From Chlorokybus atmophyticus (Eukaryota > Plantae > Mesostigma and Chlorokybus algae), in contig RHPI01001891.1 of assembly GCA_009103225.1 (NCBI GenBank), forward strand, positions 1 through 41,318: 41,318 bases of DNA, written 5' to 3'. The notes under the pieces were generated by a model. That model made no database searches. It was given only the letters and a program-made list of their open reading frames with translations, and was not told where the DNA came from. The position numbers were made by a program, and so were the translations under genes. Position 1 is the first letter of the stretch; every line of letters starts with the position of its first letter. Below are positions 6,676 to 41,318 of this stretch, piece after piece.

Positions 6676-6733
<58 letters not shown>

Positions 6734-15996: not shown

Positions 15997-16889
15997 GGCA
16001 GGAAGCAGGACTGGACTCTACATGCAACCGCGCTTCCCGCAGCTGACATGCACGACGACCACGACACCAACAGCGACAACTCTCTCAGACTTTTGTCTAG
16101 CAGCTGGGCTTCTACCTAGGCAGGAGCCTGACGGAGGTAAAGCGAGGTGTTCTGGCGTCATTCAACGTCTGTATACACAGCTAGGCACAACAATCCGATC
16201 AACAGCCACGTTCTTTCTCGTGTGATCACTGCTGGGGCGTTTGTGCATGCGCTGCTCCTCACCTCCTAGCTATAGGCGCTGGCCTGAAAACAAAAGGGCA
16301 GTGTGCAGCCTCAACTGCAAGCGGCCGTCCCACCCGCCGCTACAAGGGCAAAAGGACCTACAGGACAGGCCTTGCGCTCAGCGTGCATGCATGCCAGCAG
16401 CCCTGGCATGCATTCACCGTTGACGTGCCTGGAAGATTGTGAATGAGAAGGACTCGGGACAAAGTTGCAGGCTGCAACGCACACATGCACGCATATAAAA
16501 CAGCCTCGCCATCAGGACTGGCATTTTTTGCCGCCATACGTTGCTCGAGGCTGAACAGCTCAGATTGTTGATGATAAATGCAATCAATCACAAGCTATGC
16601 GTCAGGTAGGCAGTCAGGAAGAATATGTCAAAAATTCGTCTTTGCGAGATGATGTTACTGTAGCCCAACATAGGTTAAACTCGGCGTCATGGGTAGTGCT
16701 ATATTACCCAAGCATGTGTGCTGATTAGGCGACAACGCAACACCAGCTGTACAGTAGTTGAATGATACGAAAGCAAGCAAGACATAATGTCTCATGCAAT
16801 GTCTCAACTACATAATTTTTGGAAGGGCATGTTGATGCGCTTCAAATGATGCGCTTCAAACTATATACAACAGCTACCAGCATGCATCA

Positions 16890-19406: not shown

Positions 19407-19732
19407 TGTCATGCCAGCGGTCTCGGAGGGGCCAACTTCCTCGTTGATGCCTACAGCCAGGCATCGTTCCCGTGCTACCAGCATCGACAATCCTTTTTAT
19501 CAGTCATGCCTACAGCCAGACATCGACCTTGGCTACAGGCATAAGTCCCACTCGACACGAAGTCGTCAGGCAGTCTTCGTAGGTACCTAGTATAATCCGT
19601 ACTAGCTGATCCGTTGCGAGTGCCGACTTACGCTTGATCTAGGTCATTTCGTAAACTAGCTGTTATCTTAGAAATGAATAGATGTTACTTGTCTATAACA
19701 GCTTAGGACTTAGTCTCTGTACGTTGATGACA
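19407..19732 (+). repeat. Putative 5' LTR of element A (TGTCA...TGACA, 326 bp)
   Basis: 5-bp inverted termini; shares the TGTCATGCC start, ATGCCTACAGC motif and GATGACA-(C)TGTAAGTGAG end with 38581-38265 of element B; ATGCCTACAGCCAG occurs twice (19447, 19506). No second LTR in the window to confirm the boundary. Confidence 0.55.
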
Positions 19733-20278
19733 TGTAAGTGAGAACTGAAAGACTTGGAACTAAGAAGTACGGATGTTGGTCTTTGGAGCGCTCGGGACTT
19801 GCTCTCTGAAGGTTGTGGCTTGGTGTGACTGCATCACCTCACCGCCCCGGCCAACACACATCTACACGAAAGAGAATGCAGTGCATGCACACGTGCGTTG
19901 CTTGTCACTTGATGTGATTGTGGTTGTGTGGGTGCACGTTGTGCGGTCCGCATCAGAGTGTGGTATCCACGAGTTGCCGCACTCATACACCTCACTTGAC
20001 AGTGGAATCATCTTGACCTCGTTTAAGGAACTGTATAAGCAGCACTACCTCTAGTAGTGGCTTGTTGACTTACAGTGTCATCCCCTTGTACAAGTGAGTG
20101 TCGTGCATCAGCGTGGCTTGCATTCTTTCAGCGGCATTGGTTGCATCATTGTTGTGTTATCATTACCAACACATAGTGCATCCACAAGCACTAGTGTGTT
20201 GAGTGGTAGCATTGGGGGAGCACCAGTAGAGTACACACACTCTGCCTTGCTTTCTCCTGCGCTTACCGTGCGACTTGC

Positions 20279-22415
20279 ATGAGTGAGTTTACACTCAGGG
20301 AGTCCACTCATCGGTACGAGCTTTCCCCTGTGGCCAAGGAGACCACCAGCGACTTCAACAACTGGTTGGGCTCGAACCTATCCTATGGATGATACGGTGA
20401 AAAAGAGGGCGATGACAACAGCGACAGCCCCCAATCTTCACCACCACTCCGTTCCAGAGTCCGTACTCAATCTCGTCATCAAGTTGAAAGCTTCATTGAT
20501 CAGCTCAACAGCGACGACATGGAGGCATCCGGTTCCACTCATGGTCTCACCTTCTCCGGTCGTCCTGGCACATCACCACTAAAACGAATGGATCATTAAT
20601 TGGATTCTAGGATGAGCTACCATGCGAACAAGACTCCCAACTGGTCAAATGTAATATCTTTTTGCATGGCTGCAACTTGCTTAGACCATGAGGCACATGA
20701 GGTGTATAGGTCAGTTGTTGCACAGCATTAGATTGGAGGGTACGGAGTTCTGGCTGGCACCGAAGCGCTGCCCATGGAAGCATCAACTCCTGGCTTCCCT
20801 GCAACGCCCATTGTTCCAGTTGCCCCACTGCAAGGCCCTACAATTACGGAAGCTTTAGCCGCAGCACAGTTGACAGCTGAAGTAGATATCCTAGCAGTTG
20901 ATCCTGTCTTGGTCGACCGCGAGTTGACAACAGGGCAACAAGCACGCCGGTCTTGGGTGCAACTCTTGACGTTCAGGCTAATGGCAGCACAGCAAACTGC
21001 GCTTGAGGAAGCACAAGCACGACAGCGCGTCACCGTACCTGACACTCCAATCCGGACAAAAACTCAGGGAACCCGAGACAGAGCTGCAGGCAGCACACTG
21101 TCTTCAGGCTCGGTTAGCATGCGAGAACCCGCTCTCACCGTCTGGGTGGACCGCATGTTGTCACCGCCAAAGGACTTGTATCCGGCACTTTGGCGCACAT
21201 TCCCACCACAGACCAGTCAGAAGGTGGAGGAGTTGCGTCACTTTAGGCGCAAGGCAGGGGAGGATCCTCTGCGCACTTTGACCCGTATGGTCCAGCTGCT
21301 GAAAGACACCAACTACAAGATCCACAACGACCAAGCTGCCGCCGTGGTGTTAGTTAGCCAACTTGAGCCTCTTCTGAACAGAACGGTGGACAACGCTCTC
21401 AACAATACCCGACCACAAGGGTATTTGCTGCTTCAAGCCTTTGAAACAGCCCAGGCAAACCATGACCGCCAGGTGTGGATAAGAGCCGTGCTGGATATAA
21501 ACTCTGGTCCCTCACGAGCTCCTGCCTCTGCTCCAAACCCCTGCCGACATGACCGCAAGTCTTATCCCACCAACACACCCCGATCTCCTGCGAAGTCAGC
21601 TCACACTGCACTATCGGCTCCTGTTGTCTGCCATCGGTGTGGTCGACACGGCCACTACTAAAAGGACTGCACGGAGGAGTACGGGAACCTGGTGTGACCA
21701 TTGCCACAAGACCGGACATGTGGAGGCAATCTGCTACACCAAGCACCCTGAGTTTAGACCCTCAGGCAGCTACAATGGCAGCAGCGGTAACAACAATAAC
21801 AACAACAACGGCAACAAGGGCAAGGAGCTAGCCAACAACGGCTATTGGGGGAAGAACAACCTGCCGAAACCAAAACAGAACCATCAGGTTTGACCCAAAG
21901 CAGGCACTGCCGCCCGCAAGGCGCCTGTTGCGAATAACACAGAGGTGGTTGCTGCCCTCACAGCACGGATGGATGAGCTTCACGCGATGCTGAAGGGCAG
22001 GGAGGATGAATATCGCGCATGCTACACGGCACATTGGGCAGCAATGGGAGTGAAGCGTAAGGAAGCCACCCCGCTTACGCGCGTACAGCCACCACAACGA
22101 ACCCAAGAGGACGCCGAGCTATCCTCCACAGTTGGATCAGTCGGTTCTGTTGGCCAAGCGGCAACAACAGCAGCGACAACCACAGTACCGTCATTGGCCG
22201 CCACCACTGGTGCCTCAGAGTCATTGACTGCATCGGCAGAAGCCCTTGCGAATTCCATTGCAGCTGTTGCTACACCAGCCACGACAGCCGCCACCGTTAC
22301 CGTTGGTGAAAGTCTTGCGGCAACTATTGCTGCAACCTCAGCTATTTTTGCTGCCAACTCGACGGTAGCAATGTCATCAGCAGCAACCATAGCCGCTGTT
22401 GACCCCACTGCGTAG
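20279..22415 (+). pseudogene. gag of element A (two CCHC zinc knuckles, Asn-rich and Thr/Ala-rich tracts)
   Basis: ATG 20279 is in frame with ORF 20774; CHRCGRHGHY*KDC and CDHCHKTGHVEAIC; aligns with element B gag (FSGRPGT/FPGRPGT, LDHEAHEV/LDYEAHDV, RTFPPQT in both). Confidence 0.8.
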
Positions 22416-24149
22416 CCAATCAGTACTGCAGCTATCACCCAGCTCAGTATCGCTGCCTTGGAAGCAATCATAGCCGGACCATCAATGTCCACCATGGCTG
22501 CCACAGGGGCGGGACCCTCCACGTCCACGACGGTGCAATCTCGACCGGCGCAGCTGACGTACCAGCAGCACTGTTCCCACTCGGACATGGACTAACACGT
22601 ACTGCCGCTGCCATGCCAATCACGTTGGCGCACGTTGGACGTGACCAGTTCATGTGACGCATTGACGAGGATGCCCTGCTATATCATATACCATGATGGT
22701 ATCGACACTGTCCCTCTCTATTGTTAGGAGCTGGGCCACAACTTCCGCACCCTACGCATCACCGACAACACCCTCACTATGTTCCGGGATTTGTACAATC
22801 GTCATCGGTCGGCACCGGAGCATCCAGCATTGCTCGGACCACTCAACCAAGAGCCGTCCAACCTGGAACACTTCGACAACTTGGACCCGCAGGTGGTTCA
22901 ATTGTTTCCGGCATTTGCTGCGCGTCCGCTGGGCAACAATCCCGTGTTGAACACATGTTTATGGCGTGAGCAATGCAGTTCCGTAATCATCGAGAACAGT
23001 TGGTCTGTCGTTGCGAACGGGACTGCTTTAAAGATGTCCAGCGGGACATCGACGAAGCACCAGCTGGCGTCATCATCAACGACACCCGCGCCGAAGCATA
23101 TGGCAACATTTGGGTGAACAGGCCGCAGCATCCAACCGACGAGGACTGGGAGCGCATCAGGCTCGCTTAAACGGGGGCGTTGAGCAGATATTTTAGGGGG
23201 GCAATCGCTGCCCTCATCATCGACATGACCAACACTTGGCCAGCAAACCAGCGTCAACCGGGGAAGGGGTATCTTCAACAGGAAGCCCACCCGCATCTCG
23301 CTGGTCAACAGACACACCGGGAGCAACAATTGCGCACACGCCTGCTGCTAGAAGCCATCCAGGGGACGTTGCAACAAGGCCCGAAAAGCGCCACACTTAG
23401 AGGGATGCTGCGACTACAGCAAACCACGGGAGAACGGGCTCAAGTACTCACCTGGTTAATTTACAACCACTGGTGCAGGGGGGCACCCTGCAATTCCACA
23501 ATTCGTGTTCCCATCCAGTCTGCAATGGATGAGTGCGTTCATGCGCACTGTACGGCAAGCCTACGCCCAAGTGGTGGACCACTTGCGTCCCTATGGCATT
23601 CGTGACACAGTCACTATGGAGGTCGCCCTCATGCATCCACCAGGCATCAAGGCAGCACGGCAACTCCGGCGCATTGCGCAGGCCTATGATAACCAGCGTC
23701 GATAGCAGGTCTCGCCCGACACGCGAGCCATGACAGTAATCGACATAGGGGTCACTGGAGGTCGGTGGGACACGTACATGCGGAGCCACCTGGGGATACC
23801 CACCATTAGCGACGCATTGAGAAGGCAGCTGGTACGCGCCGTCTACCCCACGCCTATGCCTCAGGTGGAGGAGTTTGAAGACTGGCGTTATCACCCCTTA
23901 GTCACATGGGAGGGCACTCTTGTGCGTGAGGCCGCTCATGCACGCTATCGGATCGACAGGGAGACAGTGGCAGCAATGGAACGCGTTCGTCCACCACCAT
24001 AACCGTCAGCTCTTGGTACTGACCCAACGCCTCGTCGTAATCCACCACCGGCGCCGGCACCACCCGGACAGGGGCTGGGGCAGGGGGGTGAAACTGAACA
24101 AGGGAGTGCACCAGGACAGGGCACAGCCTCTGCTGCAGGAAGAGGAGCC

Positions 24150-24700
24150 ATGGCAGCCTTGAGGACAATTACTCTGAAGCAACACCCCATCGCAAATATT
24201 GTTTCTCGACGTCCCAGCGATCGCACACGGCTTCACGCCAACGCTAATATGGTTGCCAAGCAGGGCAAGCATGTGCAGATCAACGGACACGTGCCCAAGC
24301 GCGTCATGCTGCATGGAGGGGCACAACGATGTATCATCGGCCGACACTTGGCTAAGGCCTTGGTCTCATAGCAGCGTCGCTGGATAGTTGCCCTTTCGAG
24401 ATTGGAACCGCCACGAGAGGACGAGAAAGCCCCGTTGGCATCACCAAGGAGGTCCTCACTATAACCTTGACTGGGCTGGACTCCACTCACACCACTCAGC
24501 TGGCTCAGCGGTGTGTGGTCACCAACGCCATCAGCTATGACCTGCTGATTGGGCAGGACTTCAGCTACCCCGTAGCCATCGGCATGAACAACTGGACCAA
24601 ACAAGCGTGGTTCAGACCCGGTTGGCGCAGCGGAGATGGTTCCACCATCGGGTTCATCCCCTTCGACCTGGTGCTGCCCACACGAGCACGCCGACTCATG
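24150..24700 (+). pseudogene. Retroviral-type aspartic protease of element A (catalytic Asp lost)
   Basis: KRVMLHGGAQRCIIG corresponds to KRVILDTGAQPVIIG in element B; downstream VVTNAISYDLLIGQDF. Confidence 0.75.
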
Positions 24701-24939
24701 GGGGCCACCGCTACAACTGTCACTATGCCACCCATGCCCCACTCCAACACGCAGGACACGGCAACCAAGGAGGTGGCCTTGCAAGACCCTGCAGAGCGCC
24801 GCTGGAAAGCAGAGGTGGTCGCACATGCGTTGCTAAACAAACAGCCGTCCCCCACGCGTTGTTTAGACTACCATGAAGAAGTCCCGGTTGCAGAGCAGTT
24901 TGCCGTGGCCAACAAAATCGTGGACTTTAGCGCGGCGCG

Positions 24940-25721
24940 GCGCCAACAAGGAGTCACTTTGCTGGAGCTGTTTGGCGGGATCAGCAGCAGCTTGGCAGCC
25001 CTTCTCGACACCGGTGTCAAGGTAACACAGTATCACTACTGTGACCCTGATCCGCATGCCCAAACAGCTGTTCGCCATCATCTGCGCTAGTTGCACTTGC
25101 GCTATCCACACCTTCTGCCATTGTCTGCATTGCGTGGAAGTCGTAAGGCGCTGCCTCAAGACATTCGCCTCATTCTACTGATCATCTTATTGCCTTGGGC
25201 AATATGGATCTATTGATTGCAGGATGGGAGTGTCAAGGTCACTCCAGGGCCGGCACAGGACAGGAGCTGCACGATCCACGCTCCACGCTCTTTTTAATAT
25301 TGCTGCGAGTCATCCACTTGCTGCAGCACCACCAGATTCTACACCCCCTAGCGTACATCATCAAGAATGTCCACTCCGAGGATGATCGCCGCCACCAGGT
25401 GCAGCACGGCCACCGGACAAGGATGAACGCCACACGCCATGGGTCACGTGCACACCGTGTCTGCACCAAGTGGACAAACCTCGCTGCTATGGAAGAGCTG
25501 ACCGCCGCTGAGCACCTCCTCCAATTCGCGTCCCCTGAACTTGTTCGTGGATGACATCCTCGATATTAGCAAAACGTCGCAGCCAGTCTCTCGCCGCGAT
25601 CACGAGCACTTCTACCAGTGCAACCAACCAGGAGAACCACGTCGAGCTCTCCCCACGCTGGTCTCATACCCGGGCTCTTATGCCTTCAGGGATGGCGGGG
25701 ACAGCATGGTCTTCGACAACA
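24940..25721 (+). pseudogene. DNMT3-like C5 cytosine methyltransferase domain of element A (C-terminus resumes at 38582)
   Basis: Motif I ELFGGI 24965-24982; motif IV GWECQGHS 25222-25245; motif VI KNV 25363-25371; motif VIII AHRVCTKWTNL ~25450-25482. One stop (25088) and frameshifts. Confidence 0.85.
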
Positions 25722-26007
25722 TGTCGGGTCGAGGGGAGTCGAGGGTCACGCTCTCGGACAGCTGCATGGACAGCCATGCTGTGCTGGACATGCTGCTGCG
25801 CCACCTGCGTAACGCGCAGCAAAAACAGAAAGATGACCTCAACCCTGATGGTGACAAGTGCTTCGTGCAGCTGGTGTGCTGCTGCTGGGTAGTACGGGGA
25901 GGTGGAGTCAGTGTTCTCCCTAGTGTACATGCTGTGCTGTAGCACACAAAGTCAACAAGCCACCCCCCTTGGGCTCTGGGGGAGGTTCTAGCTCCAGAGC
26001 TCAGCTG

Positions 26008-27153
26008 CTAGCGCAAGTGAGGAGGGCCGTTGGTACGGCAATCGTCGCACCAATATTCCTCCATAGGTATCGTGTCCAAAGGTGGCTCCAGGCAGTAGCA
26101 ATGCAGGCCCTTGTTGCAGCCATCGCAGAGCATCATGAGTGCGTGGTCGCCGGCGCTGCCGCAGCGTTCACAGCGTGTGCTGCGCGCGGGATGAGGGTGC
26201 TGGATACTCCCGAAGCCGGCTACGTAAGGAAGGTGACATGGCGCACATTTCACCATGTTGTCCTTCAACCTCTCTCCGCTGTGACCAAGGAGGTCCAGCA
26301 CCCCTGTGGGGTACACTTTGAGTACCTTGTAGACGGTGCGGCCCACGGAGGTGTCAAGCGTGTCTTTAGTGGCTGCCATGCGATAGGCAAAGTCCCCCGC
26401 TTGGAACCGTCGTTGGCGCTCTTTGTAGAAGCCGCTGCGTACGCGCTCGTAGCGCAGCGTGTCGCGATGCTGCGCGATGCGCAGGTTGTTGAAGGCCATG
26501 GGGACGTTGCGCTCGAAAAGCGCGGCGCGCGTGGTGATGTCGTGGTGCATCCAGTCAGGGTCGTCGAGGTTGTTCACGACGCGATCCACCTCTTGCTGAA
26601 CACGGAAGGGGAGCAATGGTGGTCGCCCGAACAGCAGGTAGTACGGGCTGTACTCCCGCAGAGCCGCCTGCTTTAACAATCGATATCCAAGGGCCACCCA
26701 CGGGAGGTGGTCATTCCAAGTGTTCTTCTCGTACTGCAGCACGTATTTGCGGAGTGCCTTCTTGATGGTCTGTACTGTACGCTCGGCGAGGCCGTCGGCT
26801 TGAGGGTGATCACGCGAGGTACGGCGGTGGTCGATGTAACATTTGTCCAAGAGGGTGTCGAATTCCCCTCTGAACTCAGTACCTTGGTCAGTGATGACCT
26901 CGGCGCAGCTGCCAAAATCGGCTGAGAACGTGAGAGAGGAAGGCTTGAGACACCCCCCTACTGCTCTTGTCGGGTAATGGTACCAGCTCCACCCATTTGG
27001 AGAAGTGCTCGATGACCAGGATGTAACGGTTGCCACGCGCTGAGGGTGCCAAGTCCCCCAAGATGTCGAGTCCCCATCGGTAAAAGAGACCGGAGATGGG
27101 GAGTGGGTGCAAGGTGGCGCTACGCGTGTTGAGGCTGGCGCGCACCATGTCAC
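26008..27153 (-). pseudogene. Integrase core and C-terminal PHD finger of element B
   Basis: DDE residues GLDILG / ITDQG / GLAERT (frameshift near 26925). Complete C4HC3 PHD CERCG...LCDGCNKGLHCYC...WCDDC at 26172-26038. Confidence 0.9.
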
Positions 27154-29209
27154 ACTGCTGGCAGTGGCTGACGAACCTTTGCACCTGTTTTGTTAATCCA
27201 TACCACCAATATTGTGCCCTCACTAGGCTGACTGTACGCTTGACACCGAAGTGTCCAAGCTCAGTGTGGAGGGAAGTGATGATGCCCTCGCGCGTGACTG
27301 GTGTCGGCACTTCCTTGTCTTCGTCGTGGAAGCGGCGATACAGCTTGTCATCTGCCCATCGATAGTGACGGGTGCGTTGGGTGACTCGGTTCTTCTCTCG
27401 AGCGCTCATGCCGGAGGGAAGCTGGCCCCTTTGAAGAAAGGAGAGTGATGGCTTGTCCTGCCATATGTCCTGCCTGGTGTCAGTGGGCGCCAACTCTGTG
27501 TCATCGACGTCAATGTCGTCTGCGTGGGCGTCTCCCAAGGGTGTGGTTGCTGCAGGGCCGGTAGACTCAAGGGCAGGAATCTCCTTTGCCACTGCTGAGG
27601 CCGTGGTGTTGGTCTTGCGCCCTGAGCGCAACGCGGCAGCAGCAAACATTGCTGTCATGGTGGGGGCTGTTGCTGCAGGGACGAGCTCATGCCGAGCTCC
27701 AGTTTTATCATTGGTGCTGAGGTGAGGGTTGCGACTGAGGCCATCGGCGTTTTGGTTGGTGAGGCCAGCGCGGTGGTCGATCTCGAAGTCGTATTCCTGC
27801 GACAGCAGGGCCCATCGAGCAAGTTTCCCTGTCAGATGTTGGTTGGTCATCAGCCACTTGAGGGGCTGATGATCGGTGATCAGTTGAAAATGTCGACCAA
27901 AGAGGAAAGGTCGAAAGAAGGAGATGGCCCACACTGCAGCGAGGCACTCCCCTTTGTAGCTGCTGTAGTTGGCCTCGGCGCTATTGTTGCTGCGGCTGGC
28001 GTATGACACCACCCGCTCCTTCTTGTTCTCATCGTGCTGCACCAGCACCGCTCCCATCCCCAGCTTGCTCCAGCTGGTGTGAAGGATGAAAGGCTTGACG
28101 TAGTCCGGACGTTGAAGGATGGGAGCGCTGGTGAGCCTGCTCTTCAGCTCCTCGAAGGCCTGCTGTTGCGGCTCCTTCCACGCGAACTCCACCTCCTTCT
28201 TCAGTAGCTCGTTGAGGGGCCTTGCGATCTTCGCGAAGTCCTTCACGAACCGGCGATAGTAGTTGGCAAGTCCCAAGAAAGCGCGCAGACGTGTGAGGTC
28301 TGTCGGGGCAGGGATAGCTGCCAGCGCCTCTACTTTTGCCTCCTGCACATACACACCATGGGGCACAATCATGTGCCCTAAGTACGGCACCTTGTGGGTG
28401 AAGAATGTACACTTGTCGGGGTGTACGGTCATCCCCACTCCCTTGAGTCGTTCCAGCACCGCTTCGATGTGCTGAAGATGCTCCTCGTTGCTGCGGCTGA
28501 AGATGAGGATATCATTGATGTAGCACCGCGCGCAGTCCAGCCCCTTCAAGGCTTTGTCCATGACGCGTTGAAACTTGGCGGGGGCATTCTTCAGCCCGAA
28601 CGGCATTACCTTCCATTGGTACAACTGTCGGTTGCCCTAGAAGGAGGTCTTGTGCTTGTCCTCGTCCTTGATGGCGATTTGGTTGTATCCCTGACGCATG
28701 TCCAGGATGCTAAAGACTGTGCAGTCTCCCACATCATCAAAAATACCCTCTGCTGTGGGCATGGGGTACCGGTCTTGCTTGGTCTTGTTGTTGAGGGGCC
28801 GATAGTCGCCACACATGCGTCGCTCTGTCCAGTTGCCTGCTGAATCCTTATTCAATGGCATGACGGTTGCTGCTGCGAAGTCCGATGTGGACTCTTCGAT
28901 AAGGCCTGCATCCAGCAGCGCCTTACATCTCTGTTCCACTAAGTCTTCTTCCAACTTGGAGGGCCTATATTGTCGTTGGAACACCGGCTCAGTGTCCACC
29001 AGCTCGATGTCCATCTGGTACACTGAGCATGTACCCAATTCCTTCACATTGAAGCTGAATTGGCTCCTCCGTTTGTTAAGGAGAGCCTCCAGCTTCTCTC
29101 GAGTGTCTTCTGTGGCCAACGGGCCAATGGCATGGTCCCAGGAGGTTGCATTGGCAACCACGGGAATGTCCTCCACTGTCACTGCTGCTTGCTCCTTCAT
29201 GTGGACCAC
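26888..29209 (-). pseudogene. Reverse transcriptase, RNase H and integrase zinc finger of element B
   Basis: RRMCGDYRPLN, DMRQGYNQI, MPFGLKNAPAKFQ, CYINDILIF (YxDD decayed), RAFLGLANYYRRF, TDHQPL, DGLSR, HTELGHFG...CQQC. In-frame TAG at 28638-40 where W is expected. Confidence 0.92.
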
Positions 29210-29329
29210 CTCGAGGGCTGTGTGAGCTGCCTTGCTGTCGGCTACGCGATCAGCCCACCCCCCAGCCTAGTGTTCGAGATCCTCGAAGGACACGTGGTGG
29301 TCCTGCAATGCGAAGCTCAGCTCCAGCAG

Positions 29330-31155
29330 CCATACCATGCTGTTCTGGTCCATGGCGCGACCAAGCAGCTGGCATTGCTGACTATCTGTCAGCGATGAGC
29401 CCGTGATGCTGTTGTGGGGAAGAATCCCATGGCGCGTTCACGTTCGCGTGCGTTGGGTTCTTTCAGCCTGTTGGTGGTCGCATCGAACACCATCCCGTCA
29501 CCACCGTTCCGAAATGCGTAAGAGCCCGGGTAGGACACCAATGTGGGGAGTGCGCGACGGGGCTGACCGGGCTGAGTGCACGGGTAGAAGTGGTTGTGGT
29601 CATGACGCAGGACAGGCTGTGCTGTGCGGCCGGGGTCAAGGATGTCATCGACCAGCAGGTTGCGCGGCCGAGCGCTGCGTGTGCATTCGGCGGTCACGAG
29701 TTCCCCCACGGTGGCCAAGTTTGTCCATTTGGCACGTACACGATGTGCGCGCGAGCCATGTCGTGCTGCGTTCACCTTGAGTGGGTGCCCCAGAATGGAG
29801 CAAACTTGTCGGTAGCTGGAGGCCACGTGCGGACGCTTGTCGTCCTCTGAATGCACATGTTCGATGACGTACCCCAGGGGTCTGGAGATTTGATGGTATT
29901 GAAGGAGGTGGATGATTCTCATCAGATCCCAGAACAGCCCGGAGCGAGGGTTTTCGAGGCCTTGCCCCTTGCTTGCCCTGGAGTGCCCTTGGCATTCCCA
30001 TCCAGCTTTTAACAGGTCGACGTTGCCGTGGGATAGTAGGTGATCTTCAGTGATCAGCCGGATGTCCTGTGGCAATGCTTTGAGGCTGTCTTGCAGCGCC
30101 GAGAGGGGTAGTTGACGTGGATACCTTGCGTGCAGTTGGCGTAAGTGGTGCTTGAGGACCGTTTGCGCGTGTGGGTCTGGGTTGCAGTAATAGTATTTGA
30201 CAACCTTCACGCCCGTGTTGAGGACCGCAGCAAGACCGCTGCCAATGCCTCCAAACAGCTCCAACACTGTGATGCCCTGTTGCCTGCGAAAGGTGTGGAA
30301 CTCCACCACTCCGGTGGCCACCATATGGTGGTCCTGCACCTTGATGTGGCTTCGGTAGTTGGGGAAGCGCGTGGTGATCAGTGGATGGCTGAGCAAGACG
30401 TGCGCATCCACCTGTGCGCGCCAGCGCCGTTCAGCTGGGTCTTGTAATGCTACTTCCACGGTGGCATCCTTCTGCTCCTCGTTGTACGGGGTGGGAGAGG
30501 AGTCGACAGTTCGACACGGGGCCGTAACACCAGCAGCGACTTGCGTCCGAGCGCCGTCGTATGTGGCCATTGCAGCCTCCCGGGTGCGGGCGTGGCTGCG
30601 TGTGGCCACGGCAGCCACTTTGCGTTGGGCGCGCGTGCGCGAGACCAACTCGAGAGGCAGAAAACCCTGCACCTCTCCGTCATCGTCATCCCAATGTGGC
30701 CGAAACCACGCTCGCTCTGTCCAGCAGTCGAGGCCCATGCCCACAGGGAAGTTGAAGTCCTGCCCAAGCAGAAAGTCGAAGGAGCCGGCATTGGTGACCA
30801 CACATTGCTGGACGATCTCGGTCGTGTGGGTTGGGTCCAGCCCTGTCAACCGAATGCAAAAGGCCTCCCTGGTGACTCCCATCACCTTATCTCGGCTACC
30901 TGTGGCAGTGTCCAACACGTACGGGCAAGGCACCAAGTCGGAGCTGTTTATGCCGAGGAACCGCGCAAGGAAGCGCCCAATGATGACAGGCTGTGCTCCG
31001 GTGTCCAAGATTACTCGCTTGGGTGCCAGGCCGTTGATGGTAACATGCTTGCCTTGGTTGGCCACCATGGCAGCATTGGCGTCGATACGCAGCCTCTTCA
31101 TACGAGCTGTCTGCACCTCTGACTCAGTTCTCTCAGCTGGGGGTGCTGAGCGCAT
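29330..31155 (-). pseudogene. Protease plus DNMT3-like C5 cytosine methyltransferase of element B
   Basis: ILDTGAQ (DTG at 31005-30997); motif I LELFGGIG 30264-30241; motif IV GWECQGHS 30003-29980; motif VI EHV 29862-29854; motif VIII AHRVRAKWTNL 29748-29716; ERAMGF; motif X LLGRAMD 29368-29348 after a +1 frameshift. Confidence 0.9.
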
Positions 31156-32850
31156 GGCAGCCAGAGCTCCTCTGCATGCTGGGTCCGGAGAACCCCCGCC
31201 TTGCCCTCTCCCTCTGCCGAATTGACCGGCGCTGGTTGTGGTGGCGGCGCAGGTGGATGCCGCCTCTGCGAAAATGGAATCATGCCCGCGGGTGTACCCA
31301 ATGGCTGTGGAGGAAACCCCGGCGGACCCGGTGTTTGTGGGCCTGCCTCGCGTTCAGCTTGCTCCGCGGCGTACGTCCATCGGACAGCATGAGCCGCTTC
31401 TCTGACCAACGTCCCTTCCCACGTGGCCGTGGGCTCGGTGTCCGTGTCGGTCCAATGATGATATTGAGGCATGGGCTGCAGGTATACGGCGCGTAGTAGC
31501 TGTCGCCGCATGTCGTGAGTGATGGTGGGGACTCGCAAGATCCCTGCCATGTAGGCATCCCACCTTCCTTGTACCACTTCGAGCACGGTCATGGCGCGCG
31601 CGCGTAGGGTGCGCTGGAGGTCAGTCTGCTGTGCGTGTAGCTCATGAGCAATGGCGATGCGCCGCCGTTGCCGTGCGGCTTCCACCCCTGGCAGCCGCAG
31701 CATTGCCTCTTGCACTCCCTCCAGCGTGTCCGGGGCTGTGGTGGCAGCCTCGTCGTATGCTTGTCGCAGCGAACGAACGAATGCCCCCAACCATGATGCT
31801 CGGTTGCCAAAGGCAAACAGGGGGACAGCAGGGTGATTGGCAACGAGCCATGTCACGAGACGGGCTCGAGCGGCGCTGCCCTCTTGCATCCCCATCATCT
31901 GTCTTAATGTGTTGCCCTCAGGCCTGTGCAACATGACTGCTTGCCGGATGAGTGCGGTACGGAGTTGTTGCTCCCCCACCATACCAGCTCCTCCTCATTG
32001 TGTGGTGTCCCCTTGCGGGGTGAGGTACCCTCGCCCTGCATCGCGTTGATCCTCGGGTTGCAACCAAAGGAGGCAGCAGCGGGGCGATTACCCCCCTCAA
32101 TTGTTGCGCCGACGCCCTCGCTTGGTCTGCAACAGTTGCTTATCCTGGCTGTTCGATGGCGACTGCCGTGGAGCACTCTGTGGTCAGCGCCGTGGAGGCG
32201 CTGGCAACATTTGCCGGTGCTACGGTTGGTACGATAACGGCGTGTGCTGCTTCGTACGCCTGTCGGCGCGCGTCCACTTGGGCAGCTTGGTCCACCCGAT
32301 AACGATGGGCCTGTTTGAGGGCAGAGAAACGCTCTTGACGACTGCCTGGAGTGAGCCCCCGGAGAGCGGGATCAGCGCCCAGCGCGATGTCTGACATGGT
32401 GACCACGAGATCTTGTATTTGTGTCGCTGGAGGCCGAGTGGGTCCAGTGGCGAGGGCTCGAAGTCGATCTGTTGAGCGGGCATGGGTTGCCGCGTTTGAT
32501 TGGGTGCGCCCTGCAATCGTGCGTGTAATGCCAGGAACAACTGGATGGCCAGCTCCAATACTACAGATCGCCGGTAGGTGACCCCGAAGAGACGATCCCT
32601 CATCTCTGGTGCAGTGCCGGCGAGAATTTTATCCTCCAGCTGCTGTTGTGTGGGTTCCGGCAGCGTGTGGTACTTTGAAGGTGGTAGGGGCAAGATGCGA
32701 TCATCGCGTGCCACGCGCGTGGTGCATTGCCCCCTGGTCCGTACGCAATGGTGGTGGGCTCCACGTTGCGTAGAACCGACGCCCAGGCGCGTTCTACTTG
32801 TGGCCCGCGTGGCACTCGCTGTGCGACATCCAGCGCTGGTGGCGGTGCCG
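31098..32850 (-). pseudogene. Unassigned coding region between gag and protease in element B (homolog at ~22416-24149 in element A)
   Basis: 294-aa open segment 31982-31098 aligns with A (EQQLRT, LVTWL/VLTWL, RQAY, RWD[AT]YM, RRQL[LV]RAVY, TWEGTLVREAAHA). No known domain recognised. Confidence 0.7.
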
Positions 32851-33315
32851 TTCAAACCTCAGGCAGTGGTGCAGTGGGTATGGCAGCACTACTGGAGGCG
32901 ATGGTGGTGGCACCTGCAGCAGTCGTCGTTACTGAGGTGGCGGCTGTGAGGGTGGCAGCAATTGCGGCCGATGTGGTTGCTTCGATTGAGGCAGGGGTGT
33001 TGGATTCACCACTTACGAACCCAACGACCATGGTTGTTGCGGCGTGGGTGCTCTCCATCACCAGGGACAGCGTGGTGCCAAGAGTGCTGACACCTGCTGT
33101 CGTGGTCGGTGTGGACGCCGACGGTGTCGTCGACGGCGTCGTCCCAGCGGTGGTTGTGGCTGCCGAGGCAGCACCACTTGTGGCGTCCGACGATGCCGCT
33201 GTTGACGACGCGCCAGCTTCCCTGCGCGCACGTCTTGATGGTTGTACGCGTGACGGCGTGGGAGTGTCCCTATCCCGTTTTGGTGCCATCAGTGCCCACC
33301 TAGCAGCATAGCAGG

Positions 33316-33693
33316 TGTTGAAGGTATTCCTACATCCGGTCAGCTTGCCCTTTGCAAAGGAATACACAAGAGGACCTCGATGACTCCGGACTGAGTTCGA
33401 GCAGACTGCAAAGCAAGGCCTTACAAGAACCGTTGGATTTTGATGGATACGAAGCCGAATGACACGTGGAGTAGCTTGTCGGATAGATCTTGAGGTTAGC
33501 TACGTGGTGCAATTTACAGCACAGGATTCTGTTGAGTAGATCGTACGGTTTGGCTTGTAGACCAGCAGTTTGTGTATCTGGTGCAGAATTTGGCGGGTAT
33601 AAGACCCGCGGACTTGTTACCTTAATATAAGCTATAGTGTTGTGATGTAGCATGTCACCCATGTGCATTTGCTTGTCAACGTGTATGTCAATA
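33316..33693 (+). repeat. 5' LTR of the copia element
   Basis: Aligns end to end with 35581-35960; ~18 substitutions (mostly transitions) and one 2-nt indel by hand alignment. Confidence 0.95.
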
Positions 33694-33706
33694 GGATATG
33701 GGCCCA
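33694..33706 (+). promoter_or_regulatory. Primer-binding site for a half-molecule initiator tRNA-Met
   Basis: GGATATGGGCCCA directly after the LTR, one mismatch from GGTTATGGGCCCA, the complement of the tRNAi-Met anticodon arm used by Drosophila copia-type elements. Confidence 0.75.
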
Positions 33707-33959
33707 CGCATGCATATGTAGGTTGAAGTGTGTTGCAATTGTGTGTGTAGCTGTGGTTGTTTTGTGAAGACTCTAAAGACTTCGAAGATTGAAAACTGAA
33801 GCTCTGAAGACTCTGAAGGCCCTTAAAGACTGGTGTGAGAAAGTTGCAAGCGTGGCGAAAGGCAAAGAAGGCAACTTGAAGACTTGAAGGCTGTGGCGAG
33901 AGTTGAAGAGAAAGTTGCAAGTTTTGCGAGAGGCAGAAGGCGACTTGAAGATTTGAAGC

Positions 33960-35535
33960 ATGGATGGCTTAAAGTTCACAATTGAGCCACTTGAAGTTGA
34001 CAACTATAGCACGTGGAGTGTAAAGATGGGAGTTGCTACTGTTTCACGAAGACTTGTGGAAATATGTCGACCCCAAAAAAGAAGTGTCTGCAGGGCAAGG
34101 AAGTATTTGGGCGACACAAGGAAGGAAGGCATTGGCCTTGATAGGCTTGAATGTTGCGGAGCATCATCTGGTGATGGTGAAAGAATGCAGCACCGCGAAG
34201 GAGCTGTGGTTGAAGTTGGAGAGCCACTTTAAGTCGCGCAACATGGCAAGAAGGCTACAGCTAAGACAAGAACTCAACTCGTTGCGAAAGATGAGCGGGG
34301 AGCCAATTAGCAAGTTTGTAGCGCGAGCGAAAGCGTTATGGAAAGACTTGTTGGGCGTTGGCCATGAGCTCAAAGTAGTTGAGGTGGTGTGGGCTGTGCT
34401 CCTGTGATTGCCCACAGAGTATCGAGTGGTTGTCACAATTTTGGAATCAACGACGGAAGAGTTGTCGCTGGATGGGGTGACGCCAAGACTTCTTCAAGAA
34501 GAGCAACGCTTGAAGAAGGATGATGAAGCAGAGAATGGAGCATCGCCTTCAGGTGTGGCGTTTGGGGCTTCGAAGTATGTAAAGAAGGGCGCTCAAGGCA
34601 GCAACAGAGAGTGTTGGAACTGCGGGGAGCGTGGTCACTTCAAGTACAAGTGTCCCAAGTTGAAGAAGTCAAGTGAAGAAGGAGAAGGGAGAGCGGTTGC
34701 ATTTCATGCAACGGAAGAAGGAGCAGAGTATCCTGGGTGGGTGCTGGATTCGGAAGCTTCGAGGCATCTCACAAGCGACAGGAGCAAGCTCGTCAATTAC
34801 ACTCCTCTGTCAAAGCCTGTCACGGTGGACTTCGGCAACAAGACGATGTTGCAAGCGGTTGCAAAGGGGGACGTTAATCTTAGGTGCAAGGTTGGGACTG
34901 AAGTGAGGAAGGTTGTGCTGAGGGATGTACTGCATGTGCCAGGTGCATCCGCGAATCTGTTTTCGGTGCGTGTAACCACGAGGGTTGGTGCGAGTGCTGT
35001 GTTTGACATGCACAAGGCTAGGATAGTGCTTGGGGGTGTTACACAGTTGGTCGGCATCAACAAGGGTGGACTCTACTACGTGGAGGAGGACATTGAGCGC
35101 AAGGCGGTTGCTGCAATGGCAAGGGTGGTTGAGAAAAAACCACAAGGTCAGAGCAACCAGAAGACACAGAAGATTGATGTAAAGGAAAGCTCAGAGCCCG
35201 TGGGAGCTGCAAGAAGCTACAAGCAAGTGTTTGAGAGCAAGGTGTTAAAGGTGGTGAAGAATGGAGTTAAGGTTAGCACTGAAGGCCAAGGTTCTGTCGA
35301 GGGAAGACAGGTGCAGCGAGTAAAAGGCGGAAACGAGCATGCGCAGCAAGTACAAGTGAAGACAGGCAAGCTGGAGATGAAGCTTGCAGCTGAAGGCAAC
35401 AACGACTTCAAGGCGAACAGGTTTCAAGCACTGATGGAAAGCGTGGAGGAGCTGGAGCAAGAGGAGCTCAAGAGTCGGGCTTACATGATCGCCAAGAAGA
35501 GAAGTAAGGAGCGCGTGGGAGTTCACCATGCGTGA
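33960..35535 (+). pseudogene. Copia gag-protease, disrupted
   Basis: TAKELWLKLESHF...LRQELNSLRK (UBN2/Retrotran_gag_2-like), CWNCGERGHFKYKC, WVLDSEASRHLT; frameshift near 34030 and TGA at 34405. Confidence 0.85.
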
Positions 35536-35580
35536 GTGACAAAGGAGCAAGTGATGAAGGCCAAGCTGCCCGCGTGAGAG

Positions 35581-35960
35581 TGTTAAGGGTATTCCTACAT
35601 CCGGTCAGCTTGCCCTCTGCAAAGGAATACACAAGAGGACCTCGATGACTTCGGACTGAGTTCGAGCAGACTGCAAAGCAAGGCCTTACAAGAACCGTTG
35701 GATTTTGATGGATACAAAGCTGAAAGACACGTAGAGTAGCTTGTCGGATAGATTTTGAGGTTAGCTACGTGGTGCAACTTACAGCACAGGATTTTGTTGA
35801 GTAGACCGTATGGTGTGGCTTGTAGACCAGCAATGTGTGTATCTGGTGCAGAATTTGGCGGGTATAAGACCCGCGGACTTGTTGCCTTAATATAAGCTAT
35901 AGTGTTGTGATGTAGCATGTCACCCATGTGCATTTGCTTGTCAACGTGTGTATGTCAACA
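35581..35960 (+). repeat. 3' LTR of the copia element
   Basis: Direct repeat of 33316-33693; ends TCAACA, followed by the TSD GCAGG. Confidence 0.95.
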
Positions 35961-38264
35961 GCAGGCTTGATGGTCCTGCTCTTTGTTCTCCTCCAGCTGT
36001 GCCACGTGCGCCATCAGGGCTGCCACCTGGTCAATAGCCGGTGGATTGGTTGGTGCCTTTATAGCAGCACCTCCAGCACGAGGACGTCCCTTAGGTCCTC
36101 TATGCTATGAAGCGCGGTTTTTCCCTCTGTAGCCAGCTTCTTCCTTGCGGGCCCCAGCGTTGTTGTTGTTGTTGGGTTGTGGCTACCAGCGTTGTTGCCG
36201 TTGTTGCGATCACCAGCGTTGTTGCTGTTGTTGTAGCCGCCAGCGTGGTTGCTGTTGTTGTAGCCCCCGTTGTTGTTGTTGTTGTTGTTGTTGTTGTTGC
36301 CGCGGTAGCCAACAGCATTGCCGTTGTTGTAGCCAATAGAGGGCCGCAGCTCAGGGAACTTGAGCCAGCATACTGTCTCCAAGTGTCCCGTCTTGTGGCA
36401 GTAGTCGCACACAAGGTTGCCGTAATCTTTGGTGCACTCCTTTTGGTAGTGGCCATGTCGACCACACCGGTGGCACAGCACTGGAGCCACAAGGGCAGCA
36501 TGAGCTGACCGTTTATCCTTGTGGTGGATGCCTTGCGGCTCTCAGCTGCAGTCCCGCCGAAGAGGCTCTGCAGTTGTGCCTGCCATAGGCCGCGAGGCAC
36601 TGCGGTTGATGTCCAGCACCGCTTTCTCATACACTGCACGCTTATGGATGGCTTGTGCAGTCTCGAAAGCTTCCTTGAGGGTGTAGCCGAGGGGCCTGCT
36701 GTAGTTCAGCGTCAGGCGCGTTGACTCACTCAGGGTGGGATCCAACTCGGCCACATACACCACTGCTGCCGCCTCCTCACTGACGATCTTGTAGTCAGTG
36801 TCTTTAAGCAACCCTTCCAACCGTNGCAGTCGGAGAGGGTCCTCGTGGGGCTTCCGTCAAAAACGCCTCAACTCCTCCACCTTGCAGTTGGTTTGAGGTG
36901 GGAAGGTGCGCCGGAGTGCGGCGTAGAGGTCCTTTAACGGGGAGTCCGACATGGCCGCGCCCACCGTAAGCGCGGGTGCACGCAATGCCACTGAGCCGAG
37001 GGTAAAAACACTGCCTCCCGCTGGAGCACGCAAGTTCGGTGTTGGTAGCAGGGGCGTACCCATCTCCAATGCTGCAGCTTGCTGCTCCTCTTGTTGCTCC
37101 CTGATGATGGCAGCGGTGCGGTTGAGTATCCTGATCCGGCGCTCGGCCTTCTTGCTTTCGATCTCTGCAGGAGTCAATGAGGCCACTACCACCTCAACTT
37201 CTTCATTCTCTGCCTTCTCCATGGCTGCAGCTAGAGTGAGACCCGTGACTGAGGCTGGCGGGGCCGCTGCTACAGGGACAGTAACCAATGGGCTATGCAG
37301 TGACGTGGCGGCTATTGTGCTGGCCAACTCGCCATAGCCATCAATCTTGTGCAACTTAGCGACGGACTTCCACACATCATGTGCTTCGTAATCAAGGTAT
37401 TGAGCGGACACATGAAACAATACCTCATCTGTCCAGTACTTGCTCTTGAGGGCTTGATGCCGCATCTTGGAGTGGAACTTGATGATGAACTCGGCAAGTG
37501 AGGTGGTGCCAGGGCGTCCGGGGAAGCGTAGGGAGTTGGTTGAGCTGGAAGGCTCCATCTCTTCGTCGTCACTGTCCGACGGTGGTGGAGATGCTCGTTG
37601 GCGAGGAGTGGAGTGAGAGGAGGTGAAGCCGGAGACGGGGCGTGAGCCTCTGCTGCTACGGTAATCGCTCCCTTCACTTGCGCGCTCGTAGGTAAGGTTG
37701 GAGGTTGGGCTCCAGCTGTTGAGGTCCCCTTCTTCTATTGGCGAGAAAGGGGTGGGCCTGCTCATACAGCTGATGCAATGGTAAAAGTGGATGAAGGGTA
37801 GAGTGTTTGTGCTCTACAATGGGATCTCCAGTGCTGCTATCACCCGATACACTAGCGCTTGTGCGCGCTATGCGATGACGGTGACAACACTGCACTGCGA
37901 TGTGTACAACTACAAATTGCGATGCTGATGTACAGCCTGCAACTACACTCACTTGAGCAAAGAGGGTGACACTGTAAGTCAACAAGCCACTACTATAGGT
38001 AGTGCTGTTTACACAGTTCTTCGCGTGAGTGGAAGAGAAATTACACTGTTAAGTGAGGTGAATGAACAAGCAACACGTGGATGCTATGCCCTGACTGATG
38101 CCAACAAGCACACCGCGACCAAGTACACAAAGCTCACAGCAAGGACAAGCACAGTGCACAAAAACATGCGCAGGCTCTTACACGGTGAGGGGATTATTGG
38201 GAACCGGGACGGTGTGTTTCGTAGTTCAAGTCGCTTCACAAGCTCTTAGCTTTCTCACTTACAG

Positions 38265-38581
38265 TGTCATCAGCTGATCCGGTAAACACTGTGCCTACTT
38301 ATACAAGTCAACTCATGACTGTTCAAAACATAAGCTAACGGTCATATCGAAGCTATTTCCACAGGGAATCCCCATTCGATATAGAATCCGACTTATAACT
38401 GAACTCACAACTGAACAGCTACGCGCGGTGCCTATGTAGGCTATGGTCATGAGCTACTCTAGCAACATAACCTAGCTACTGGTCAGAGACGCGCGCGGGT
38501 TGCCATGCTGGTAAGCCGGGTGAGGGTCTCGCTGTAGGCATGCCCGATGACGACTGGCATGCTTGGGCGACAGGCATGACA
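38265..38581 (-). repeat. Putative 5' LTR of element B (TGTCA...TGACA, 317 bp)
   Basis: Abuts the AACA TSD; shares terminal motifs with 19407-19732; no matching copy at the other end of element B. Confidence 0.55.
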
Positions 38582-41235
38582 AACAGCACAAGCCAACTGC
38601 GCTGCGAACGCGCTATGGGGTTTTTTCCCAGACAGCATCACAGACTGCTCAGTAACAGACAATTAGCAGAGGGCAACTCCCGGGTCGCGCCTTAGACCAG
38701 ATGAGTATGGGCTGGTTGCTGGAGATGCGCTTCGCCATTCAAGGCCGACGGGTGTCTCTCAAAAAACTTGAACACTTGTCTGGGGGGCGGGTTAAGCGCT
38801 CCAATACTGTCGCGGCCCACACCGCCTTGGAGATTGCTCACATGGAAGAGCAGGCAGCAGTCACAGTGGAGGATATCCCTGTGAAGGCGACAGCCACGTC
38901 ATGGGATCATGCCATGGGACCCTTAGCTATAGGGCTCGTGAAGGAGCAGTTCGAGGCTCTCCTCAACAACTGAAGAGCTCAGTTCAGCTTCAACGTTAAG
39001 GAGTTAGCAAGTGCTTGGTGTACCAGATGGACATCGACCTCGTCAATGATGAACCGGTGTTCAGAAGGCAGTACATATCGTCAAGTTAGAGGAAGACTTG
39101 GTGGAGCAGCGACGCAAGGCATTGCCGGAGGCGGGACTCATCGAAGAGTCCACGTCAGACTTTGCCGCCGCCACAGTCATGCCCCTCAAGAAGGACTTGG
39201 AGGGCAACTGCACAGAACGGCGTATGTGTGGGGACTATCGCCCACTTAACAACAGACCAAGCAGGACCGGTACCTAATGCCAACGGCGGAGGGCATCTTC
39301 GACGACATTGGCGCGTGCAATGTGTTTAGCATTCTAGACATGCGGCAGGGGTACAATTAGATCGAGATCAAGCCCGAAGATAAGACGGCATTCTGGGGCA
39401 ACCGGCAGCTCTACCACTGGATGGTCATGCCTTTCGGACTGAAAAACGCGCCGGCAAAGTTCTGGCACATGATGGACAAGGCGTTGAAGGGATGCTCCTT
39501 CGCGGGGTGCTACATCAACAACATCCTAATCTTCAATCACACGGCGGAGGAGCGTCTGCTCCACGTTGAGGAGGTGCTAACAAGAGTTCAAGCAGTAGGG
39601 ATGACTGTGCACCCTGACAAGTGCACTTTCTTTACCCACAAGGTCCCCTATCTCGGCCACATGATTGTGCCCAATGGCGTGTACGTTCAACAGACCAAGG
39701 TGGAGGCTTTGGCATCTATCCATGCCCCGACAGACCTGACACGACTGCGTGCCTTCCTTGGCCTCGCCAACTACTACAGGAGGTTCGTCAAAGAGTTTGC
39801 CAAGGTGGCGCGCCCCCTCAACAAACTTCTCAAGAAGGAGACATAGTGGAGTTGGAAGGAGGCCCACCAACAGGCTTTCAAAGAGCTGAAGTCGAGGCTC
39901 ACCTCAGCCCCCATTTTGCAGCGACCGGACTACACCAAACCCTTTGTTGTTCGCACCGATTGGAGCAAGCTCGGCATGGGTGCTGTATTGGTTCAGCTCG
40001 TCGATAACAAGAGGGAAGGGGTGGTGTCCTACGCAAGCCGCAGCAACAACAGCGCGGAGGCCAACTACAGCAGTTACGAAGGCGAATGCCTTGCTGCAGT
40101 AAGGGCCATCTCCTTCTTCAGACGTTTTTTGTTGGGAAGACAGTTCTTACTGATCACCGACCACCAACCACTGCACTGACTCATGACCAACCAGCATCTT
40201 ACGGGCAAGTTGGCCAGATGGGCTCTGCTGCTACAGGAATACGACTTTCAGATCAACCACCGGGCAGACCTGGTCAATTAGAACGCAAATGGACTTAGTC
40301 GCAACCCCCACCTGTCAACCAACGACGTCACTGGTGCCCAACATGAGCTGGATCCAGTGGCACCACCACCGCAGGTGGCCACCATGTTTGCCGTAGCTGC
40401 ATTGCGCTCGGGACGGGACACCATCACAGGAGCGGCTCCGACAATGCCGGAACAGAGGAGATGCCAGCGCTCACCCTCGTCGACACCGACTCATCTGAAC
40501 AGACCACGCCAGATGATGCCCAACCCCGGCTGCATACCTAGGTCAAGACATTTGGTTGGACAAGAACTCTATGGTCTACCTACAACATGAACAACAGGCA
40601 GGGCCAAGCGCGCGAGAGGGTGACCGCGCAGCGCTGCCAAAACTATCAATGGGAGGATGGACTCGTCTTCCGGCGTTTCCACATCCATGAAAAAGAGGTT
40701 CCGGCTTCGCACCGGCGCGAGGGCATCATTTCTACACTTCACCCAGCGTCGGGGCACTTCGGTATCAAGCGCACCGTTAGCTTGGTGAGTGCCCAGTACT
40801 GGTGGCATGGCATGCACACCCAGGTTCGCACCTTTGTTCCAAACTGCACGCACTGCGACCTGGTGCGTGCCAGCCTCAACACCCGCACCAGCACGCTGCA
40901 CCCACTCTATATTACCGGCATGTTCTACCGGTAGGGACTGGACATCCTTAGAGATCTAGCACCCTCAGCTCGAGGCAACAAGTACATCCTCATCATGATC
41001 GAGCACATTTCCAAGTGGGTTGAGCTGGTCCCCCTTCTCAACAAAAGCAGCAGAGGAACCGCTCAGGCTTTCGTCAACCATGTGCTTAGTCACTTCGGCT
41101 CATGCGCTGAAGTCATCACCGACCAGGGAGCGGAGTTCCGCGGCGAGTTCGACTCCTTGCTGGATCGCTCCTACATCGACCACCGGCGCACCTTACGTGA
41201 CCATCCGCAGGCGGAACGTACTGTCCAGACCATTA
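38582..41235 (+). mobile_element. 3' part of element A: end of methyltransferase, RT, RNase H, integrase (decayed)
   Basis: ERAMGFF, GRALDQ, RRMCGDY, MPFGLKNAPAKF, CYINNILIF, RAFLGLANYYRRF, TDHQPL, GHFG...CTHC, ITDQG, AERTVQTI; many stops and frameshifts; homology to element B ends at ~41235. Confidence 0.9.
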
Positions 41236-41318
41236 CACACGGCGCCTGCAGCAGAATCCGTTCTCGGCACAAGCCAGTTGTGCCGTCAGCGGCACCTGCC
41301 TTCGAGTTCTGCGAACAG

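Follow-up and report, generated by a model that had tools for sequence, protein, structure and literature searches.

The 41,318-nucleotide contig analyzed here, from the alga Chlorokybus atmophyticus (RHPI01001891.1 of assembly GCA_009103225.1; in the following, the window), contains a dead copy of a Gypsy retrotransposon family that carries a DNMT3-type cytosine methyltransferase between protease and reverse transcriptase (RT); in active copies, this enzyme probably methylates the element's own new DNA. With a DNMT3 domain inside the Gypsy Pol frame and a charophyte host, the element belongs, judging by its sequence, to an already described kind, the KnitGypsy-Dnmt3 elements of Klebsormidium nitens (de Mendoza et al., 2018; PMC5890265, cited throughout from the accessible part of the article), which bears out the charophyte precedent named in the original prediction. 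By itself, the window copy adds a host. Its relatives matter more, as with them a Klebsormidium oddity becomes an apparently old green-plant lineage whose members come in two domain orders and share unusual ends. New in the sequences described here are a chlorophyte-labelled clade in which the enzyme has moved between RNase H and integrase, matching RT and DNMT trees, a readthrough-type stop in several lineages and a one-repeat form of the element, A-coding-B, where A and B are parts of a split repeat. In a literature search that left most subscription papers outside, we found no publications on Gypsy-DNMT3 elements in Chlorokybus, Marchantia or chlorophytes, and none on the RNase H-integrase position or the readthrough stop; the figures and supplement of PMC5890265 may bear on domain order and motifs.

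The window holds two Gypsy-DNMT3 elements in total, the complete element A and a more decayed one, B/C, within whose methyltransferase gene A is inserted on the opposite strand. The alternative of two additional elements, B and C, was rejected, as these are a single element split by A. Across the DNMT domain, A and the second element are about 64% identical. Their features, by position in the window, are:

19407..25717, plus strand: element B, the 5' part of the second, more decayed Gypsy-DNMT3 element, interrupted by A; start TGTCATG, gag, protease
24938..25717, plus strand: DNMT motifs I to IX of element B
25718..25721, plus strand: left copy of the 4-bp target site duplication AACA
25722..38581, minus strand: element A, a whole Gypsy-DNMT3 copy of the form A-coding-B with ends TGTCATG...CCGACA; no long terminal repeat pair
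25722..25962, minus strand: 3' end segment, repeat part B (sequence comparison)
25963..25970, minus strand: polypurine tract AAGGGGGG (read from sequence)
26038..26172, minus strand: PHD finger at the end of the integrase (PF00628, E 2e-8)
26400..27295, minus strand: integrase with zinc finger and core; frameshift near 26914 (Pfam)
27791..28900, minus strand: RT and RNase H, with one stop at 28637-28639 (Pfam)
29267..29269, minus strand: in-frame TAG between DNMT and RT; element C has a sense codon at the corresponding position
29285..30285, minus strand: DNMT3-like C5 cytosine methyltransferase with its motifs I to X in the usual order (Pfam, profile, fold)
30754..31044, minus strand: aspartic protease, DTG (PF13650, E 4.8e-7)
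33316..35960, plus strand: Copia element nested in the coding region of A and separate from the DNMT element; LTRs 95% identical, with the 5-bp duplication GCAGG
36100..37813, minus strand: broken gag-like region with two CCHC-type motifs (from sequence)
37976..38581, minus strand: 5' end segment, repeat part A, whose last 15 bp are repeated where part B begins (approximate inner border)
38582..38585, plus strand: right copy of the target site duplication AACA
38586..41318, plus strand: element C, the continuation of B with DNMT tail, RT, RNase H and integrase; runs off the window

Element A has the domain order protease-RT-RNase H-integrase, a DDE integrase, a short target duplication, TG...CA ends and a polypurine tract, all as in Ty3/Gypsy elements, and the profile has Ty3 Gag-Pol as its top PDB match. 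The gag-like region yields no Pfam match at E 0.01. Paired full LTRs are absent, the repeat between the two ends being 15 bp alone; a tRNA-type primer site was not recognized in A by eye, and the window contains no tRNA genes. The 15-bp direct repeat, found at 25949-25963, 37976-37990 and about 20057-20071, closes part A and opens part B. It could aid the joining of free cDNA ends, and it was not seen in the group of locus L050. One sequencing contig leaves out exactly the nested Copia insertion. In this short Copia element, gag and protease are matched but RT and integrase are not; by its sequence, it is non-autonomous or internally deleted.

Protease and methyltransferase share a 654-codon minus-strand frame (31353-29389), as originally predicted, with the DTG at 31008-30994. 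In Pfam, this frame matches the protease (E 5e-7) and then PF00145 (E 5e-7, above the curated cut-off), followed downstream by RT, RNase H, integrase zinc finger and PHD finger, a domain order that confirms the claimed placement of a methyltransferase between protease and RT of a Gypsy element. The predicted motifs I (LELFGGIG, 30264-30241), IV (GWECQGHS, 30003-29980) and VIII (AHRVRAKWTNL, 29748-29716) are all present on the minus strand, as is ERERAMG (29445-29425), still inside the frame; motif X (LLGRAMD, 29368-29348) follows beyond the frameshift at 29413. A profile of 87 homologues, built with the window row excluded, scores 399 bits at 30285-29407, compared with at most 0 bits for the best of 10 shuffled windows.

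The motifs I, II, IV, VI, VIII and X in order, together with a predicted HhaI/DNMT fold, mark the domain as a C5 cytosine methyltransferase, and the predicted affinity to DNMT3 is upheld in sequence, profile and fold searches. DNMT3A, 3C and 3B lead the sequence search; in the profile search, DNMT3A (E 2.6e-24) ranks before the best DRM-type chain (4.3e-14); and in Foldseek with a predicted model (pLDDT 91), all 35 matches listed are DNMT3 (TM 0.53-0.71), with the best viral match poorer (E 4e-13, rmsd 9 A). As far as model and sequence indicate, DNMT3 is the domain's nearest kin, ahead of DRM, HhaI and viral enzymes, and the motifs of the domain are unrearranged. The domain resembles the catalytic domain of animal DNMT3A/B/C in sequence and fold, in the motif order I-X and in the AHRxRxxWxN motif VIII, but is only about 20-22% identical to it, lacks PWWP and ADD domains and has WEC instead of SPC in motif IV. 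A protein atlas search returned generic PF00145 clusters alone.

The window copy is dead. Three lesions are private to it, namely N for D in motif II (30183), H for N in motif VI (29859) and the 2-nt frameshift at 29413, where the majority contigs of two sequencing runs (X1 and X2), compared over 29260-30330, read D, N and an open frame. These contigs represent other copies and not an independent occurrence, as the best-covering run may come from the window's own sample. The EHV reported for motif VI is indeed there (IEHV, 29865-29854), but it is a damaged ENV and not a variant, since the sister contigs read N. Between window copy and majority contigs, 30 differences are listed, 14 silent and 16 residue-changing, and six are CpG losses in the window copy. 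The original prediction had attributed one frameshift and one stop to decay. Both are present, and the open sister contigs confirm decay for the frameshift; the stop at 29267-29269, which lacks a readthrough context, is probably a decay product as well, because element C has a sense codon at the aligned place. The list of damage was incomplete, as A is further broken by the stop at 28637-28639 in RT, the integrase frameshift, a frameshift upstream of the protease and the nested Copia element. By contrast, the E of GWECQ is, from the alignment, not a lesion, because motif IV reads EC in 55 of the 87 homologues and PC in 31. The family as a whole is, on its conserved residues, catalytically intact: the catalytic Cys is present in 85/87 homologues, the E of motif VI in 87/87 and its N in 84/87, all eight key residues are kept in 70/87, and the sister copies retain both Cys and ENV, so the feared loss of these residues did not materialize.

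Our search yielded 87 long homologous proteins, and the domain is hence not confined to the copies at hand. Two domain orders prevail: protease-DNMT-RT, as in the window (first type, 42/87), with named members from Marchantia and Closterium, and RNase H-DNMT-integrase (second type, 41/87), with named members from Haematococcus, Hariotina and Cymbomonas; four proteins have other orders, and few labels underlie the assignment of the two orders to host lineages. RT-RNase H trees unite both types and a set of RT-starting PHD proteins in one clade, apart from the remaining Gypsy rows of the sample (support 99 in FastTree with 101 rows; 99 SH-aLRT with 42 of those rows; no bootstraps); the outgroups are top matches of one search and not a curated Gypsy set. 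The second type is a single nested clade (support 100), which is recovered in the DNMT tree (99). Over 55 shared rows, the RT and DNMT trees correlate with a Mantel rho of 0.62 (0 of 199 permutations as high), and the DNMT tree contains 19 of the 24 starred branches of the RT tree, with no conflicts between starred branches. The placement of the window copy inside the clade is not settled by these trees. Their agreement suggests that green plants acquired the domain in one old capture, and not in an event confined to Klebsormidium; a single capture with a later domain move is the simplest reading of the sequences, to which horizontal transfer between algae may be an alternative. Judged by its codon substitutions, the methyltransferase domain is under purifying selection: dN/dS is 0.07-0.13 in all three unsaturated pairs, three other pairs are saturated in dS with pN of 0.08-0.18, and A and B differ with pN of 0.14-0.22 and pS of 0.80-0.98.

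The 22 RT-starting PHD proteins without DNMT were considered as losses of the domain, but this was rejected, as all but P0203 start about 80-205 residues before RT; one cluster of them is the second frame of locus L103. P0203 itself, a Gypsy polyprotein, combines a PHD finger with an adenine methylase (PF05869); in the RT tree, its position next to but outside the DNMT3 clade is weakly supported. In Tetraselmis striata, a related DNMT3-like domain is joined to the Copia-type domains PF13976 and PF07727 (P0086-P0088; a cluster of 31) and sits on a long branch within the Gypsy-DNMT3 clade, possibly as a transfer of the domain to Copia. Since the accessible part of the plant Gypsy classification of Neumann et al. 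(2019; PMC6317226) makes no mention of a PHD finger or methyltransferase, no named plant Gypsy clade can be assigned on its basis.

These data also bear on the idea that a host or bacterial methyltransferase gene was caught by chance in one decayed element, or that the assembly is an artefact. The domain does occur in two loci of bacterial genome bins, one cyanobacterial and one of Minisyncoccia (L103, 2232-3104, and L104, 5001-5897). These are, however, whole retroelements with RT, integrase and PHD finger, and we therefore regard both as contaminants of the reference genomes. True prokaryotic and viral matches span at most about 155 of 303 residues and fall outside the element clade in a DNMT tree that holds element-borne and prokaryotic or viral rows only, so that a donor host DNMT3 lies outside its sampling. 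Given these partial matches, their position and the worse viral fold match, a bacterial or viral origin of the domain was rejected, and the anticipated possibility of a grouping with restriction-modification enzymes is not borne out among the bacterial and viral enzymes sampled. The same domain order recurs in both window elements and in the 42 database proteins; with 87 homologues and intact sister contigs, a chance chimera is refuted and, in our estimate, exceedingly improbable.

The closest described system, KnitGypsy-Dnmt3, is likewise a charophyte Gypsy element with an intronless, unrearranged DNMT3-like domain in Pol, with purifying selection, with DIRS-like split repeats (seen in full in relatives of the Chlorokybus element, the window copy itself being A-coding-B) and without the ordinary LTR pair that A also lacks (PMC5890265). 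The difference is the new host, and the likeness is one of published description: the sole K. nitens row among our search results, P0192, has no DNMT and lies outside the clade, and no DNMT-bearing K. nitens sequence was among them. Chlorokybus is an earlier-branching charophyte than Klebsormidium. The paper's text leaves the position within Pol and a PHD finger unnamed ('protease' and 'PHD' have 0 occurrences) and, in its accessible part, assigns the capture to the K. nitens lineage, whereas the relatives found here span a liverwort, Closterium and chlorophytes. SymbioDIRS-Dnmt3 of Symbiodinium (PMC5890265) shares the DNMT3 in the Pol frame, A-coding-B-A-B repeats and two domain orders, but is a DIRS element with tyrosine recombinase, unlike the DDE integrase and 4-bp target duplication here, and its CG activity has been demonstrated, whereas the Chlorokybus enzyme is known from sequence alone. 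The EpiLTRs of Cymbomonas and Euglena (bioRxiv 10.64898/2026.05.21.726589, accessible part) are also LTR elements with a cytosine methyltransferase, but theirs is sister to DNMT4, lies at the 3' end of pol and is accompanied by an adenine methylase and a chromodomain; their authors set them apart from streptophyte Gypsy-DNMT3 elements. DNMT3 in Copia and DIRS elements is mentioned in the part of PMC12344493 available to us.

As to function, we propose that the element's protease would cut the polyprotein, that the methyltransferase would be packaged in the particle and that it would methylate double-stranded cDNA before integration, most likely at CG, by analogy with DIRS-borne DNMT3. Methylation might then serve protection or host mimicry, which we favour over self-silencing, and the PHD finger may steer insertion into silent chromatin. 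The conserved chemistry residues, the selection and the position in the polyprotein speak for an enzyme that is active within the particle, where new cDNA would be the nearest substrate. Related DIRS-borne DNMT3s methylate CG de novo in yeast, which speaks for the proposal; against it, the K. nitens domain produced no methylation there, a result its authors call inconclusive (PMC5890265). The EC in place of PC in motif IV of the window family and most homologues is a further point against the proposal. A CpG deficit as a trace of self-methylation was not found: CpG o/e is 0.80 in A, 0.70 in the nested Copia element and 0.74-0.87 in the neighbours, and CpG is below that of the DNA beyond the element in only 3 of 13 loci. 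This test is weak, because active DIRS enzymes likewise show no CpG depletion (PMC5890265).

The enzyme could also act on the element's own DNA for self-silencing, so that new copies arrive methylated and quiet and harm to the host is limited. In line with this, the PHD part of the profile best matches the fingers of PHF12, CHD4, KDM5 and PHF21A, which read unmethylated H3K4, and A itself sits within another element of its own kind. Silent KnitGypsy-Dnmt3 copies bear CHG and CHH methylation (PMC5890265), but this can be the host's, and since CG methylation in K. nitens also covers active gene bodies (PMC5890265), CG alone does not silence. Moreover, long-term purifying selection is more easily explained by a benefit to the element, and we consider self-silencing unlikely. 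That the enzyme's target is not the cDNA but the chromatin of the target site, during or after integration, or other DNA in trans, appears quite improbable: in the 41 homologues of the second type, the domain directly precedes the integrase and could travel with it, but in the 42 of the first type it adjoins the protease, and several lineages have a stop that separates the upstream domain from RT and integrase. Very doubtful, finally, is retention as a non-catalytic DNA- or RNA-binding module. The EC of 55 homologues and the inactivity of the K. nitens domain in yeast (PMC5890265) would fit such a role, but among EC members as well as PC members, invariance is highest at the residues needed for chemistry only (Cys, ENV, RxR).

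Our preferred reading remains that the enzyme methylates the element's own cDNA, and the relatives make testable what de Mendoza et al. left open, namely what use a retrotransposon has for its own methyltransferase. Intact-looking multi-copy members are found in Marchantia (a cluster of 18 proteins) and Haematococcus (a cluster of 13). Both hosts are culturable and open to manipulation.

How much enzyme is made may differ between lineages. In 16 first-type loci, which fall in two or three lineages, a conserved stop between DNMT and RT is followed by CAG-TTA, CAA-TCA or CAA-CCC/CCT. These contexts, TAG-CAR-YYA or TAG/TAA-CAA-CCC/CCT, include the readthrough signal of tobacco mosaic virus, CAR-YYA (PMC2754532, accessible part), which is exact in 3 of the 16 loci; the remaining 13 have CAA-CCC/CCT, one base off the consensus, and CAR-YYA follows none of 64 other stops. 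We propose that such a leaky stop downstream of DNMT would yield the methyltransferase together with Gag, in Gag-like amounts and in excess over RT. In L001, L002, L103 and the L004 group, the stop lies about 130 codons past DNMT and follows Gag-protease-DNMT rather than Gag by itself. Neither the window's lineage nor the L050 group has the readthrough stop; the other lineages, Chlorokybus probably among them, use one frame.

DIRS-like repeats were noted in KnitGypsy-Dnmt3 by de Mendoza et al. (2018; PMC5890265). Here, the full arrangement A-coding-polypurine tract-B-A-B is found in the relatives L050, L052 and L075, and partially in L046, L066, L070 and L072; the flanks of L050 and L075 are compatible with 4-bp duplications. 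The ends of these relatives equal those of the window copy (TGTCATG, CGACA), and the internal junction reads CGACA-GC-TGTC or a one-base variant. A loose form of this pattern occurs within 3 kb after the PHD finger in 18 of 37 loci (8/14 of the first type, 10/23 of the second), compared with 6 matches in 120 kb of coding control; a strict form has 21 matches in 721 kb of these loci, whereas prokaryotic and viral loci have 2 in 611 kb, and this form was not found within 3 kb in 19/37 loci. The window has no match, as expected for the A-coding-B form. A contig of run X2, but not X1, joins the 3' end of A to its 5' end (38581 to 25722) with GC in between; this B-to-A joint is thus seen in X2 only, and an A-to-B joint was not seen. 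The end motif CGACA keeps its CpG in the junctions of 21 loci though the elements are CpG-poor, and the C is present in all 18 loose-pattern matches.

These ends suggest a route in which the cDNA would be circularized and the integrase would open the circle at the palindrome CGACA-GC-TGTC, where a staggered cut would give two processed integrase ends. A two-repeat circle would then produce A-coding-B-A-B, and a one-repeat circle the A-coding-B form of the window copy, which could instead arise through recombination between two B repeats. Foamy virus integrase similarly opens a palindromic end-to-end junction (PMC1180852, accessible part), as we infer for these elements, but there the junction lies between true cDNA ends, whereas here it would lie inside the repeat.

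Taken together, these observations allow a broader scenario, which we put forward tentatively and as possible rather than probable. One Gypsy lineage may have captured the methyltransferase before the chlorophyte/streptophyte split, and charophytes, liverworts and chlorophytes would still have it in catalytically intact form. In the chlorophyte branch, the domain would have moved from between protease and RT to between RNase H and integrase, and a leaky stop would have raised the enzyme's dose in some streptophyte-type branches. The whole lineage would integrate from circular cDNA cut at a CpG-containing palindrome, and the methyltransferase would protect or mark that circle.

Beyond the two elements, the window begins with a TTAGGG-type telomere (1-135, about 130 bases of AACCCT units; a short internal run lies near 1884-1920), a motif reported for C. 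atmophyticus (PMC8287931, accessible part). In keeping with this charophyte host, an exon of the neighbouring cyclase gene matches a C. atmophyticus protein at 99% identity over 92% of its length. A class III nucleotide cyclase gene is duplicated in inverted orientation (6318-9304 and 16878-19404, about 80% identical), and element B begins 3 bases past the end of the match of the second copy.
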